Sequence record: NC_018859.1
DNA length: 64,000 bases
Source: Escherichia phage ECBP2
Reading direction: 5' to 3' (one strand)
Each line of letters begins with the position of its first letter. Within the stretch, counting starts at the first letter, position 1. Made by a program: the position numbers and the translations under genes. Below the pieces are notes generated by a model, which searched no databases, had not been told where the DNA came from, and saw only the letters and a list, made by a program, of their open reading frames with translations. Of this stretch, positions 17,673 through 21,027 are shown in pieces.

Positions 17673-17975
17673 CTAGATTAGATCATAATACTTAATAATA
17701 TCAGAGAGCTTAAACTCTCGAATGTCATTCTTGTCATTGTCCCAAGCGGTCATTATCCAACAAGGTTTGCCCCCATTATGATAACGGGAAGAAGCAACTG
17801 AGGTTCGTATAGGAACAACGGAGCGGTCTGCAATTTCACCTCTCCAATTACGATAGCTAAAGCGAAGAGTTTGTGTCGTAGATACTTGATCATTTGTATT
17901 TTCCTTGTTCATAGATTCAAAGACTTCCTTCTCTTCAGGAGTCTCTAGATTTTTTAAATTCGCGTCTTGCATCAT
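17673..17975 (-). CDS. hypothetical protein
   Basis: Track ORF 17673-18032; internal ATG at 17975 has an AAGGAAG RBS and reduces overlap with the upstream HNH gene. Confidence 0.4.
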   Translation of the reverse strand: MMQDANLKNLETPEEKEVFESMNKENTNDQVSTTQTLRFSYRNWRGEIADRSVVPIRTSVASSRYHNGGKPCWIMTAWDNDKNDIREFKLSDIIKYYDLI

Positions 17976-18339
17976 TCTCTTCCTTAGTTTTAATCTTATG
18001 GCAAGGTTCTTTACACAAGACTTGAAAGCCATCTACCTCAACCAAAGCTCTCTCAATGATTTCATCCCAAGATGCTTCATGGTCCACTGGAACAATAGGA
18101 TTAATGTGGTCAACAGCTACTTCCTTAAGAGGAGAGTCATTACCACACATGGCACACTTGTAGTGCATTGCCAGCTTGCCAGTCTTAGGGTTGATCTTAC
18201 GTTCTGTCTGAGCTTCTTTGAGAGCATCAAACATAGGCTTCCACTTTCTAGTCAGAGAACGAATCCCTGACTTGATGAAGGAATTATAACGTGCTTCAGT
18301 CCACTGGTTTGAACATCTTGTTTTCTCAGCCTTCGCCAT
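17935..18339 (-). CDS. HNH endonuclease
   Basis: HYKCAMCGNDSPLKEVAVDHINPIV...LCKEPCHKIK: Cys/His HNH-type motif. Confidence 0.6.
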   Translation of the reverse strand: MAKAEKTRCSNQWTEARYNSFIKSGIRSLTRKWKPMFDALKEAQTERKINPKTGKLAMHYKCAMCGNDSPLKEVAVDHINPIVPVDHEASWDEIIERALVEVDGFQVLCKEPCHKIKTKEENDARREFKKSRDS

Positions 18340-18517
18340 AACCTACATCCATATCAGCGTCTTCCCAAATACGTTTGTTAATACGATGTGATTCTTTTTC
18401 AGCACGAGGGATACGTCCAGTACGACGATCAAATGCTTGATGTTTAATCTTCTGGTCTTTACGAGACTCACGATTAGAGGAATTTTCATCATACGAACGA
18501 TAGTCAAATTTACCCAT
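18326..18517 (-). CDS. small basic hypothetical protein
   Basis: 63-aa ORF, Arg/Lys-rich, fills the gap between flanking genes. Confidence 0.3.
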   Translation of the reverse strand: MGKFDYRSYDENSSNRESRKDQKIKHQAFDRRTGRIPRAEKESHRINKRIWEDADMDVGYGEG

Positions 18518-18530
18518 TATAATATCCTTA

Positions 18531-19349
18531 TTACCAAGTTTTATCTAACCATGACCATTCAAAGAGGTCACCTTCAGCTTGTCCGACGAAGAGCAATCGA
18601 GCATTTTCTAGCATCTTAGCTTCTGCTTCTTCCTCGAACCTCTTATAGTATTCCATTCGTATAATGTGATAAAGAGTACACTTATCGAATACCTTCTCAA
18701 TAAGTTTGATTGCAGCCTTGCTACCAATACCTTTACGACGCATAACTAGGTTGCCACCCCACATCATTTCAACTTTCTCACCACATCCGGGGATGTTGTC
18801 TGTACTGTCCCCAATCAACATCTGATAGAAGAAGTTCTGCCATGCTACTTCCTCTGATACATAATGAGGAGGTACTTCTTTCTGTCGTTCACCACAAGCC
18901 CAGCGATAATGCCATCCGGGAGTGATTAACAAATCCTTATCACGAGTACAGATGATAGTGTTCTTCTCAATACGTTGTCGTTCAGCGAGTGCATCATCTG
19001 CTTCTCTACCAAACACCTCAACGTACTGATAATGTTCTTTGATGTAATCACTAACGTTCTGCCAATGATGTGGCCTTTCTCCCGGAGGTCGGTTAGCTTT
19101 GTAACCTTGTTGCTGAGCAATATCAAATCGGAAGTTACCACCTTCACTAAAATAGAAGACAGTTCTTTCACAACCAGCTCTTGAGATGATTACATCAATC
19201 TTATGTTGGAGACGTTCAATCAAGAATCCATAATCAACTGGAACACGACCTGTGTCTAGAAAAGGATGCTCTTGTGTAAGAGCACCAACCTCATACCGTA
19301 GAACATCTCCGTCCACAATCGCTACTTCTGGATAAGATATATCACTCAT
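18531..19349 (-). CDS. 5'-3' exonuclease / flap endonuclease (T7 gene 6 / RNase H-like)
   Basis: GYKANRPPGERP (YKAxR motif) and GDSTDNIPGCGEK...IGSKAAIKLI (H3TH-like); likely start MSDISYPEVAIVDGD (GGAGGA RBS) overlapping the upstream stop as ATGAGTGA. Confidence 0.7.
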   Translation of the reverse strand: MSDISYPEVAIVDGDVLRYEVGALTQEHPFLDTGRVPVDYGFLIERLQHKIDVIISRAGCERTVFYFSEGGNFRFDIAQQQGYKANRPPGERPHHWQNVSDYIKEHYQYVEVFGREADDALAERQRIEKNTIICTRDKDLLITPGWHYRWACGERQKEVPPHYVSEEVAWQNFFYQMLIGDSTDNIPGCGEKVEMMWGGNLVMRRKGIGSKAAIKLIEKVFDKCTLYHIIRMEYYKRFEEEAEAKMLENARLLFVGQAEGDLFEWSWLDKTW

Positions 19350-19785
19350 GATTTCCTCCATGGTGTCGGATAAGGTGACAATTAGCACAGAGCATGACAT
19401 ATTTATCTAACTCTGCCTTAAGTTTAGGCCAGTACCGATAGTATGAAGGGTTTTCGTCTTTTGTTTGTTCATCCAGATGATGGAACTGCATAACACAAGG
19501 TGGGTATTCTTTTTTACAATCTAAGCAAACACCTCCCATGTATTCTATTGCTTTTATCTTAAGATCTCTATTTGCCTTATTAGCAACCTCTTGCCGTCTT
19601 TTTCTATTGGCAGCATACCAAGCTCTTTTCTTTTCTGCGGTACAAATCTTACAAGTTCCAGTCACACCCTTAGTGCACACCTTATTGGGGTGATATTCTG
19701 TTAGGGCTTTTTCAACCCCACAAACGTTACACACCTTAGTATCTGCATCCACAATTGCTACTTCAGGATAGATTACATCAGGCAT
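19342..19785 (-). CDS. HNH homing endonuclease (Zn-binding)
   Basis: CNVCG...CKIC...CLDC...QFHHLDE...CANCHLIRH; N-terminus MPDVIYPEVAIVDAD duplicates the N-terminus of the downstream exonuclease. Confidence 0.65.
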   Translation of the reverse strand: MPDVIYPEVAIVDADTKVCNVCGVEKALTEYHPNKVCTKGVTGTCKICTAEKKRAWYAANRKRRQEVANKANRDLKIKAIEYMGGVCLDCKKEYPPCVMQFHHLDEQTKDENPSYYRYWPKLKAELDKYVMLCANCHLIRHHGGNHE

Positions 19786-20377
19786 AGAGATCTCTCCGTG
19801 TCTGTGCAATACTGTACTCTAAATACTCCACTGCCTCTTCTACAGAACCATCATTAAAGAGAAGATAGGTTGAAAGGTTCGTGCCTTCAATATAGGAACG
19901 AGAGTCTCCTTCAAAAGTACATCCATCCCGATAAATCTGAATTACTCGAACATCGAAATGCTTTTCCAGTTCTTCAACTTCTGCTTTGAATCCACCATCA
20001 GAGAAAACGATAACATCGTTCTGTCCTAGCAGTTGTTGTTGTTGAATGCTGCTAACAGCAAGTTTACCCATGCAGGTATCCCCAAACATTGGCTTCAGAT
20101 AGTTCTCACTAGTTGAAATCATCAAATCTCGAACTGACTTACCGCCCCATTCAGGACGGTTATGTTCTTTCCACTCACGGTCGTTGTACAGCTCCATGAA
20201 CTCATGAAGAGGGAGACCTAATGCAGCAGCAGCCACTCGATACATAGGCTCCTTAAAAGCCTTTACATGAGGTCTAAACTCATCGTTACCGAGTGTCTTC
20301 TCTAACCAAGAATTAGCGATTGTATCTTTACCACAACCCGGTGGTCCATTCAGAATTACTACTAATGGTTTACTCAT
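19778..20377 (-). CDS. P-loop nucleotide kinase (dNMP kinase-like)
   Basis: Walker A VVILNGPPGCGKDT resembles the N-terminus of phage dNMP kinases. Confidence 0.5.
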   Translation of the reverse strand: MSKPLVVILNGPPGCGKDTIANSWLEKTLGNDEFRPHVKAFKEPMYRVAAAALGLPLHEFMELYNDREWKEHNRPEWGGKSVRDLMISTSENYLKPMFGDTCMGKLAVSSIQQQQLLGQNDVIVFSDGGFKAEVEELEKHFDVRVIQIYRDGCTFEGDSRSYIEGTNLSTYLLFNDGSVEEAVEYLEYSIAQTRRDLYA

Positions 20378-21027
20378 TATTGAATCATCCCTTGAAGATC
20401 TTCTTTATCAAAGTGCTTCTCTACTACCGCTTCATACAGATCACGATTCTCTGCATAACGGCGATAGAAAGTTCCGTGTGAAATTCCCAGCTCCTGCTGG
20501 ATGTGATCATGAGGTATTCCAAGGAAGAGCATAGAGAACATGCTTGCCATTTTCTTGGTATCCATAATATCACTTAAGTCTTGGAAGAAGAAAAAGATTC
20601 TAGATTCCAAGAATGGGTCTCCAGTAGAGTCATGCTTATCCATCGCAATCTCTAAAGGACTTTCCCACGAGTTCATCTCAGGAGGTCTAAACATATCAGC
20701 CTCTGGAATAGAGTAGATACGTCGGTCTCCAACTGTCTGACGGTTAGAACGAATTGACCAGATGATATTCTTAACACGATAAGTCATGTGCTCAATATCT
20801 TTTTCATCAGTGAGCAGAAGTTCTTCTTGCTTTGCAAACACAAAACGCCAAGCGTTCAGTAACACTTCCTGAGCAACATCCTCTGCTTCGTGATAATCTT
20901 TAATGTCATACATAAAATACTTATGCACAACTTTCCAGTTCTCCCGATAGAATTCATCGAAGGTTGGATAATACTTAATAGGAATGCCATGAATACGATA
21001 GCGTGTAGGTGTTGTCTTTTTCTTCAT
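20377..21027 (-). CDS. phage-encoded sigma factor-like protein
   Basis: [15 protein letters not shown] resembles sigma region 2; C-terminal [17 protein letters not shown] resembles a region-4 helix-turn-helix. Confidence 0.5.

Follow-up and report, generated by a model that had tools for sequence, protein, structure and literature searches.

A probable HNH homing cassette in the exonuclease gene of Escherichia phage ECBP2 borrows the start of its host gene and carries a re-coded replacement

Introduction

Two overlapping genes on the minus strand of Escherichia phage ECBP2 (NC_018859.1), one for an HNH endonuclease and the other for a FEN-type 5′–3′ exonuclease, open with closely similar sequences. 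This raises the question of which of the two starts belongs to the exonuclease gene, where the other came from, and what their relationship says about the arrival of the HNH gene. The initial annotation of the 64-kb stretch of this genome that was analysed here (hereafter the window), made from the letters alone, saw in the pair a footprint of homing-endonuclease insertion at the start of the exonuclease gene, with duplication of the target 5′ end. By its sequence the phage is a Kuravirus, that is, a phiEco32-like podovirus of Escherichia coli, and numerous relatives with and without the HNH gene could be compared with it. The comparisons described here point to a selfish HNH cassette which is inserted in frame after codon 15 of the exonuclease gene, takes over the resident start for its own expression, and supplies the exonuclease with a replacement 5′ end that is carried by the cassette and re-coded in a largely synonymous way. 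For this composite explanation, homing included, we put the probability at roughly 80%; our confidence is higher for the anatomy of the cassette alone and lower for the individual homing steps, the role of the re-coding in immunity being the least certain of them.

Results

The two gene starts are diverged copies of one sequence

On the minus strand the genes follow in the order ECF-type sigma factor, deoxynucleoside monophosphate (dNMP) kinase, HNH open reading frame (ORF) and exonuclease. The HNH ORF (19342–19785; 147 aa; PHROG 2255, 'HNH endonuclease') extends from an ATG at 19785 to a stop codon at 19342–19344, and the intact exonuclease ORF (18531–19349; 272 aa; PHROG 107) from an ATG at 19349 to a stop codon at 18531–18533. 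A mechanical list of ORFs starts the HNH gene at a TTG at 19809; the ATG at 19785 is preferred, since relatives start their exonuclease gene at that position. The HNH ORF then begins MPDVIYPEVAIVDAD and the exonuclease ORF MSDISYPEVAIVDGD.

A repeat scan gave a single meaningful direct repeat, in which the 45 nt at 19305–19349 match those at 19741–19785 at 35 positions with a spacing of 436 nt; the second-best match of this 45-mer within the window is 27/45. The probability of at least 35 matches in 45 is 3.5e-13 per comparison, equivalent to about 5e-8 expected across the whole window, so the close likeness of the two starts is as real as had been claimed, with the correction that the feature as originally delimited (19318–19809) leaves the final 13 nt of that of the exonuclease outside. 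The likeness does not reach further upstream than the ATG, the two ribosome-binding regions being unrelated (GACACGGAGAGATCTCT versus CACCATGGAGGAAATC). The ten differing nucleotides leave a longest shared run of 8 nt and fall in seven codons, three of which are synonymous and four of which are not (P2S, V4I, I5S and A14G); the earlier description of the differences as mostly synonymous is therefore too generous for the two copies in the window. Measured against phages Bas88, 4E8 and PAS59, which have Ser (TCT) at codon 2, the same comparison gives four synonymous and three conservative codon changes; codon 2 is Pro (CCT) in the window and in its closest relative, TH42.

The upstream copy is resident and the downstream copy came with the HNH gene

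HNH codons 1–15 are identical at 45/45 positions to the exonuclease start of TH42, and at 44/45 to those of Bas88, 4E8 and PAS59, all of which lack the HNH gene. Because of the perfect match to TH42 we identify the upstream copy (19741–19785) as the resident one: codons 1–15 of the original exonuclease gene (MPDVIYPEVAIVDAD), together with its translation start, have become the N-terminal leader of the HNH protein. The start that the exonuclease now has (ATGAGTGATATATCTTATCCAGAAGTAGCGATTGTGGACGGAGAT) is identical at 45/45 positions to that of Bas93 and at 44/45 to those of the contigs L095 and L096, whilst from codon 16 onwards the exonuclease DNA is identical to that of Bas88 and different from that of Bas93, which there follows its own clade. 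Bas93 belongs to a Paul-like clade, which differs in its dNMP kinase and has a GTP-binding gene in addition, and the HNH ORFs of Bas93, L095 and L096 begin MEDVKLPEVAIVDAD, as the exonuclease of the HNH-less phage Paul does; their downstream copy stays MSDISYPEVAIVDGD. One and the same block (HNH codon 16 to the stop, a Shine–Dalgarno sequence, an ATG and 15 re-coded codons) is thus present in two clades with different resident flanks, and its ends are identical in Bas93, L095 and L096 despite the different flanking sequences. In 50,697 phage records, the set used for all nucleotide and tblastn surveys, a 73-nt blastn query with the re-coded start matched only the HNH-carrying Bas93, and no 'hit-and-run' allele (re-coded start without the HNH gene) was found there by blastn. 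These sequence relationships lead us to conclude that the downstream exonuclease start is foreign and arrived with the cassette. The earlier reading of the pair as a duplicated target 5′ end therefore does not stand, one copy being resident and the other imported.

The cassette itself measures 436 bp (19305–19740, minus strand), 399 nt of which are HNH coding sequence, and comprises HNH codons 16–147 with the stop codon, the Shine–Dalgarno sequence, the ATG and the 15 re-coded exonuclease codons. It accounts exactly for the single 436-nt gap in alignments with TH42 and Bas88; its ends can be placed only to within 3 nt, because GAT is common to both flanks. Rather than lying adjacent to the exonuclease gene, as had been supposed, it is inserted in frame within the exonuclease ORF, behind codon 15, and the HNH ORF, which lacks a start of its own, is a fusion with the resident start and the 15 codons that it opens. 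At the other end, the Shine–Dalgarno sequence read from the cassette (GGAGGA, 19354–19359) lies inside the last HNH codons (..HHGGNHE*) and is identical in Bas93, L095 and L096. The ATG and replacement codons 1–15 (MSDISYPEVAIVDGD, 19305–19349; 78% DNA identity to the resident copy) follow and join resident codon 16, restoring a full-length, continuous exonuclease ORF that is colinear with that of Bas88. At the junction the resident codons GAT GCA GAT are replaced by GAC GGA GAT. In the segment 19305–19349 the element thus carries a diverged version of its target, which goes with the cassette and is not found in HNH-less genomes.

The cassette also resembles its surroundings in the spacing of its genes. 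The stop codon of the dNMP kinase gene (19778–20377, minus strand) overlaps the HNH ATG by 8 nt, just as it overlaps the exonuclease ATG in Bas88, and the HNH stop (TGA) in turn overlaps the exonuclease ATG by 8 nt (ATGAGTGA). The pattern ATGNNTGA is common to both junctions (19347–19354 and 19778–19785), with the kinase stop inside HNH codons 2–3 and the HNH stop inside exonuclease codons 2–3. The 8-nt overlap at both junctions means that the cassette reproduces the resident layout of translational coupling.

Closely related phages lack the cassette at exactly this site

The closest records to the window by megablast are TH42 (94.7%), TH34 and Bas88. The dNMP kinase–exonuclease region is matched by 92 phage records, among which only Bas93 aligns across the HNH segment; 21 relatives that are 88–95% identical at a query coverage of at least 80% align in two to three pieces without it. 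In the closest HNH-less records the region measures 1661 nt, compared with 2101 nt in the window, and the exonuclease gene follows immediately on the dNMP kinase gene. Aligned globally, TH42 and Bas88 each show one clean gap of 436 nt against the window, with no raised divergence on either side. A tblastn search with the HNH body found one close copy, that of Bas93 (97%). Relatives with a single, uninterrupted exonuclease start therefore exist, the comparison that the initial annotation had suggested, and its view of the locus as an insertion footprint of a homing endonuclease gains from it: presence and absence at one precise site among near-identical genomes, with sharp boundaries, is the distribution looked for in a homing gene.

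The HNH protein and its borrowed leader

The HNH protein consists of the leader, a Cys-rich N-terminal half with two CxxC motifs and a C-terminal half with the HNH (ββα-Me) motif. Two HNH families of PHROG match it (E = 7e-40 for PHROG 2255 and 2e-17), and all residues that are invariant in its family are present (C19, C22, C45, C48, C87, C90, H102, H103, N112, C133, N135, C136, H137 and H141). Across 47 homologues the pattern ..FHHLD..N..C..NCH..RH.. is invariant together with C87/C90/C133/C136. A search of IMG/VR with the single HNH protein found no close relatives, and a profile search succeeded. The protein database holds 101 members of the family, most of which begin with an exonuclease-like M-x-P-L-I-D-[AG] ahead of the first CxxC, some being leaderless.

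An AlphaFold2 model of the protein has a mean confidence score (pLDDT) of 89 overall and of 60 for residues 1–10, within the borrowed leader; given this low confidence the leader residues are probably not part of the predicted HNH fold. Residues 99–142 are modelled as strand–helix–strand–helix, and the best fold matches of the model in the PDB are HNH nucleases (Gme HNH, 4h9d; Cas9 HNH; T4 endonuclease VII), at E-values of only 0.1–1. Searching PDB sequences with the HNH profile likewise gave weak HNH matches (E = 0.2–0.9), and hhalign of the family profile with two defective T4 MobA fragments gave E = 0.08 and 0.32, with only the HNH motif aligned. On this evidence the protein is assigned to the HNH (ββα-Me) superfamily.

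The insertion point lies in the most conserved N-terminal motif of the exonuclease

The exonuclease matches PHROG 107 with E = 3e-61. Its matches to the Pfam models 5_3_exonuc_N and 5_3_exonuc are weak and under the gathering score, and a search of PDB sequences returned no match. In hhalign the family profile aligned with a hand-entered sequence of T5 FEN at E = 3.4e-5, with EADD and GD..DNI.G in register and an alignment that does not extend to the N-terminus. We assign the protein to the FEN / 5′–3′ exonuclease family. D13, D15, L17 and Y19 are invariant across the exonucleases of three phage groups (kuraviruses, Grimontviridae and aquatic phages), and 35 HNH-less aquatic loci conserve LID[AGS]D[VI]L.YE. 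The cassette directly follows the family-invariant D13-x-D15 and precedes the invariant L17/Y19, which together form the most conserved N-terminal motif. D13-x-D15 resembles the hhhDG motif of FENs and, going by this resemblance and by its invariance in the family, probably holds their first metal-binding Asp. Coding sequence for conserved catalytic sites is the typical target of homing endonucleases.

The same design recurs at the same codon

Kuravirus-like contigs contain four types of cassette, the HNH proteins of which are 58–96% identical, at one insertion codon (after ..[IV]DAD and before VLRYE). Type A, found in the window, Bas93, L095 and L096, combines the leader MPDVIYPEVAIVDAD in the window, or MEDVKLPEVAIVDAD in the others, with the cassette-borne exonuclease start MSDISYPEVAIVDGD. 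Type B has the leader MEDVKLPEVAIVDAD with the exonuclease start MSNETPAPPEIAIIDSD in L092–94, and MEEVKLPEVALVDAV with MMNKETPAPPEIAIIDSD in L009; type C (L089 and L090) has MEDITLPTLAMIDAD with the cassette-borne start MSDITLPKIATIDGD; and type D (L091) has a leader ending ..YDYTLALIDAD with the cassette-borne start MEMYDYTVALLDAD. All four types have the resident start as the N-terminus of the HNH protein and an intact exonuclease ORF that opens with a cassette copy written in different codons.

Beyond the kuraviruses, the Grimontviridae offer a pair of phages that are 99.4% identical, Salmonella phage PKM.Hi.22.6 (OR053651, L005) with the HNH gene and phage PKM.Lu.22.1 (OQ829281, L237) without it; both come from Denmark. 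Here they differ by one gap of 416 nt and three substitutions in the next 14 nt, the following mismatch being 400 nt away. The resident start, ATG CGT ATA CTT ATT GAC GCT GAC ATT CTT, has its cassette-borne counterpart in ATG AGG ATA TTA CTG GAC GCT GAC ATA TTG, a re-coding of 10/30 nt that comprises four synonymous codons, with switches within the six-fold codon sets of Arg and of Leu, and one Ile-to-Leu change. Resident codons 1–6 are fused to the HNH gene (MRILID|TKTC) and codons 7–10 are replaced. The three changes 3′ of the insert could be part of the cassette or a short co-conversion tract. In Aeromonas phage BUCT695 (OL799327, L238, 1578–1805) an internally deleted HNH ORF of 75 aa with the leader VKALIDA|KICRVC lies upstream of the exonuclease gene, and its sequence identifies it as a decaying copy of the same cassette family.

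In aquatic relatives the rebuilt junction carries frame breaks

The design is also present at the same site in many aquatic phages (L007, L008, L010–L018, L020, L022, L023, L113, L177–L180, L240–L242, L244 and L245), where the HNH gene is followed by a Shine–Dalgarno sequence and an ATG with 'M.PLID[AG]D..', and a frame break or in-frame stop occurs at the junction with the exonuclease gene. Such breaks are present in 20/22 distinct cassette-bearing aquatic loci and in 0/38 cassette-free loci (Fisher p = 5.5e-14). They consist of 1, 4, 5 or 7–8 extra nt, or of an in-frame TAG or TGA, between 'M.PLIDxD(IL)' and the remainder of the gene; as read from the sequences, the insertions usually begin with a stop codon and lie at the same junction as the enteric cassettes. 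The exonuclease ORFs after the break are intact (~250–286 aa) in the 11 loci checked and in Phriendly, and one freshwater genotype with a 4-nt break is identical in at least four separate metagenome assemblies.

Several breaks are framed by matching codons. An in-frame stop stands between like codons in CTT TAG CTT (L012), CTT TGA CTT (L179) and CTG TGA CTA (L020 and T2S1), and hops of +5 would bridge GAT TA GAT (L010, L018, L241 and L242) and CGA CC CGC (L245). Once the gap and the landing codon are excised, the spacing agrees exactly with the consensus D.D[IV]L.YE. Phriendly, a cultured phage of Vibrio natriegens (MN062185, L007, 2901–2975), reads GAC ATT CTT TGA C CTA CGT TAT GAG where its cassette-free relatives WD615, KIT05 and VPp1 read GAC ATC CTA CGT TAT GAG; a 7-nt skip would give a conceptual bypass product of 283 aa that is colinear with the exonucleases of these three. 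A simple hop between matched take-off and landing codons does not fit L011/L017 (GAT TAGGT), L013 (GAT TCAC), L177/L180 (CGA TAGC), L113, L240 or L244, the breaks that do not conform being TAGGT, TAGTC, TAGCT, TCAC, TAGC and one extra C; L180, which has a second frameshift, may be a pseudogene or a poor assembly. CTT TAG CTT is also found in L126 (IMGVR_UViG_3300034168_000065, 1–330), where the upstream endonuclease is a different one of the HNH_3 type (a partial ORF with an HNH_3-like ..SNLEWSTRKLN.. and a helix-turn-helix-like tail) and the exonuclease downstream reads DIL*LLYE. The stop-hop-like junction may thus be independent of the endonuclease family, something that is also reported of the gene 60 bypass.

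We regard the aquatic breaks as candidates for natural short translational bypass ('stop-hop'), analogous to that of T4 gene 60. Weiss et al. are said to have obtained synthetic stop-hops in 1987, with matched codons on either side of a stop. According to a review by Atkins et al. 2016 (PMC5009743), natural in-frame stop-hops are not known, and bypasses of the gene 60 kind but shorter had 'long been presumed'. The aquatic loci can alternatively be read as recently invaded, crippled exonuclease genes or as cases of reinitiation. In a broader scheme, which we advance tentatively and at somewhat less than even odds, the window element would be the gap-less member of a widespread set of cassettes that target 'LIDxD|[VI]L.YE' of phage FEN exonuclease genes and neutralise the rebuilt target, the enteric ones by synonymous re-coding and the aquatic ones by an insertion of 1–8 nt together with programmed short bypassing or frameshifting.

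Neighbouring genes

The ECF-type sigma factor gene (20377–21027, minus strand) lies upstream of the dNMP kinase gene. The kinase itself matches PHROG 139 (E = 5e-41) and contains at 20025–20038 a compound indel (10 nt in the window and 7 nt in TH42 and Bas88), a net gain of 3 nt that keeps the frame and is probably of little importance. Another HNH-family ORF, 134 aa long (17935–18339, minus strand; PHROG 3106, E = 7e-38), lies downstream of the exonuclease gene and has a counterpart in all six kuraviruses examined (including Bas88, Bas93, 4E8, PAS59 and Paul), labelled 'terminase small subunit' in some records, and L092/L093 have an ORF of ~133 aa at the corresponding position; unlike the sporadic HNH gene of the cassette, this is probably a fixed gene. 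Its 3′ end is overlapped by a small ORF (17673–18032, minus strand) with a WYL-domain match just over the gathering score (Pfam E = 2.3e-5), and the segment 17490–17675 is highly variable in comparison with TH42 and Bas88, with several indels of 20–263 nt.

The 3′ flank of the exonuclease gene (18517–18531 region of the window) is a second variable spot in kuraviruses. It holds a Dam methyltransferase gene in 4E8, an ORF of 161 aa in PAS59 and a gene for an endonuclease with HNH_3 and AP2 domains in several metagenomic contigs; the window is without any such insert. ORFs at this spot lie at 1618–2148 in L003, 1642–2127 in L004, 3785–4243 in L091 and 3767–4252 in L092/L093.

Discussion

A route by which the cassette may have arisen and spread

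The structure of the locus suggests a mechanism in which the HNH enzyme, during mixed infection, would nick or cut HNH-less exonuclease alleles at or near the boundary of codons 15 and 16, and repair from the cassette-bearing genome would copy the cassette in. The design may have originated from a free-standing HNH gene just upstream of an exonuclease gene, which would have been copied along with the 5′ end of the donor exonuclease; a layout of this kind, in which an SSB-like gene and the exonuclease gene flank the HNH gene, is found in several aquatic phages. As the recipient would have been without homology upstream, the 3′ side of the repair would resolve within the exonuclease gene, and on the 5′ side the recipient's broken end, at codon 15, would be joined in frame to the HNH ORF, given that only in-frame joins keep the endonuclease expressed. 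Such a repair would thereby yield resident codons 1–15, HNH gene, donor codons 1–15, and resident sequence from codon 16 onwards. The re-coding (10/45 nt) would then keep the enzyme from recognising the rebuilt junction and so provide self-immunity, and might also lower recombination between the copies, the longest shared run of which is 8 nt, guarding the cassette against deletion. In five out of five enteric cassettes the codons adjacent to the junction differ from the resident ones.

Alternative explanations

An in-situ tandem or target-site duplication, whether transposon-like or by replication slippage, followed by divergence of the copies, would account for two direct copies that flank the inserted ORF at a spacing equal to the insert length. 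It would not account for copies that are only 78% identical between flanks that are ~94% identical to those of relatives, nor for an upstream copy that agrees with TH42 and a downstream copy that agrees at every position with Bas93, a phage of another clade with a different resident start; the same foreign copy travels between lineages with the HNH gene, and the flanks of Bas93-like genomes exclude that these acquired the entire dNMP kinase–exonuclease segment by recombination with a window-like phage. Neither a transposase domain nor terminal inverted repeats were found, and the copies lack the identity of a target-site duplication. As the downstream copy is foreign and the same design recurs at the same site, we do not see here a target duplication in the style of a transposon, and consider this origin very unlikely. 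Mere chance or convergence of the two N-termini, or a similarity limited to translation-initiation signals, has only the shortness of the copies (45 nt) in its favour; the expectation of ~5e-8 such matches per window leaves the former practically no room. The latter, a likeness confined to a common ribosome-binding region, had been named at the outset as an observation that would count against an insertion footprint, and is contradicted by unrelated upstream regions and a likeness that starts at the ATG. The other observation so named, related genomes with the same arrangement and no intact target site, is not borne out either, as relatives do possess an uninterrupted site.

Many phage HNH and GIY-YIG endonucleases that lie inside genes are borne by introns or inteins, and the HNH ORF is in frame with its upstream 'exon', which invites the idea of an exonuclease made whole by RNA or protein splicing, with a second copy that is there by coincidence. 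A TGA stop codon (19342–19344) terminates the HNH ORF, however, which for that reason is not an intein; no Rfam match, to group I or II introns or to any other family, is found in 18400–20500 even at E ≤ 1, and a complete Shine–Dalgarno sequence, ATG and 15-codon replacement make splicing unnecessary, so that we give this idea hardly any credence. A different possibility is that the HNH gene is a stable, domesticated one, for example a packaging or repair accessory, which was ancestral in kuraviruses and has been lost from most of them, no mobile element being involved. Phage HNH proteins can serve roles that benefit their host, and the second HNH gene at 17935–18339 is conserved in all kuraviruses examined. 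Loss would nevertheless have had to remove exactly 436 bp and to restore a clade-specific start in ~90 genomes, and it is at odds with a cassette that occurs in two clades with different resident flanks, with four divergent cassette types at one codon, with a 99.4%-identical pair with and without the gene in another family, and with the degenerate copy in BUCT695. We hold domestication to be unlikely. The distribution, the four types, the PKM pair and the decay in BUCT695 together form the classic pattern of gain and decay of homing endonucleases.

Several observations weigh against an in-frame homing cassette or limit how far this explanation can be taken. In a Foldseek search of the PDB, HNH nucleases rank top and none reaches E ≤ 1e-3, and the Pfam HNH models do not match the HNH ORF, the only Pfam hit being a spurious sub-threshold one to ALKL1_2. 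A co-conversion tract beside the window cassette was looked for in the alignments with TH42 and Bas88 and none is visible, which is also what non-homing acquisition would lead one to expect; flanks that were already identical in the immediate donor may be reason enough for this. Few isolates carry the cassette, which besides the window is present in 1/92 records of the kuravirus region. Three changes in the replacement copy alter amino acids, so that the restored exonuclease may not be fully functional. Finally, the target site and cleavage specificity, homing, and self-immunity through re-coding are all inferred from sequence.

Relation to known elements

The design closest to the in-frame cassette is, by analogy, that of the T4-type MobA/gene 60 element, its translational bypass aside. 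In that system an HNH gene lies inside a conserved ORF, with clean ends and repeated insertions at one codon (Manning & Atkins, bioRxiv 10.1101/2022.08.31.505936), and an element-encoded copy of the target, 'HomR', with 67–81% DNA identity to the parental segment, replaces that segment and is followed by a bypass cassette (10.1101/2022.08.31.505936). The window cassette shares with MobA the position of the HNH gene inside conserved coding sequence next to a metal-binding motif, a 3′ diverged target copy that rebuilds the downstream part of the gene (78% identity in the window and 67% in PKM.Hi.22.6), clean break points, independent insertions that recur at one codon in different clades, and overlapping ORFs; in both, the HomR of each clade resembles its own host gene. 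Its enzyme probably belongs to a different HNH family, the likeness to the two defective T4 MobA fragments compared being confined to the HNH motif, and, unlike MobA, it targets an exonuclease rather than a topoisomerase. The exonuclease gene is not split into two functional polypeptides with CTE/NTE tails; the 15-codon upstream piece instead forms an in-frame fusion with the endonuclease and provides it with a start, so there is no separate upstream exonuclease ORF, and translation of the window exonuclease involves no bypass, the ORF being continuous. The window element is accordingly probably not a member of the MobA family and represents a new form of the HNH-plus-HomR cassette design. The MobA/gene 60 mobile element was reportedly treated by Bonocora and co-workers in 2011, and to our knowledge a replacement carried by the element itself has been documented essentially only for that element.

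Free-standing homing endonucleases of phages, such as T4 Seg and Mob, are sporadic among close relatives and lie next to their presumed target genes; they spread by double-strand-break repair in mixed infection, and the carrier is immune through differences in the target. The window cassette resembles them in its sporadic distribution, its location by the presumed target, the spread through break repair that would be expected of it and the immunity expected from sequence differences. It departs from their arrangement, between genes and with a start of their own, in lying inside an ORF, borrowing the start of its target and bringing a replacement 5′ end; the classical intergenic layout is seen among the aquatic relatives in L010, L017, L018, T2S1 and Phriendly. 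With intron- and intein-borne endonucleases it has in common a position inside a critical, conserved coding segment without loss of host gene function, which here is kept by a spare part at the DNA level and not by splicing of RNA or protein, no ribozyme being detected and the ORF being interrupted by a stop. A further parallel is the mitochondrial atp6 gene of the fungus Allomyces macrogynus, reportedly described by Paquin and colleagues in 1994, in which a GIY-YIG ORF is said to be accompanied by a foreign gene end that replaces the resident one, the latter being left as a remnant. There too the endonuclease ORF is fused in frame to the host gene and a foreign terminus takes the place of the resident one; that element concerns a 3′ end, a GIY-YIG enzyme and an organelle, and the present one a 5′ end, an HNH enzyme and a phage. 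A literature search found no description of an exonuclease–HNH cassette in phiEco32/Kuravirus phages, a search combining HNH with exonuclease-gene frameshifts gave nothing relevant, and a precedent for the replacement of gene termini that was sought in a Sclerotinia mitogenome paper is not there.

Implications

Besides introns and inteins, the cassette would represent a third route by which a homing endonuclease can reside in essential coding sequence, namely by taking over the start signals of the host gene through in-frame fusion and supplying a re-coded spare 5′ end. It also bears on annotation, since it accounts for the exonuclease-like peptide at the front of HNH proteins of this family. 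At 436 bp the system is small, and it is found in E. coli phages that can be cultivated and have matched cassette-free relatives (the BASEL phages Bas86–93, and the PKM pair), which makes target recognition, self-immunity by synonymous re-coding and homing frequency directly testable; PKM.Hi.22.6 and PKM.Lu.22.1 are an ideal pair for homing crosses. The aquatic relatives add candidate natural short hops, long predicted from synthetic constructs, one of them in the cultured phage Phriendly. If true, the aquatic bypass would have evolved independently of T4 gene 60/MobA, as a second system of this sort and a much simpler one.

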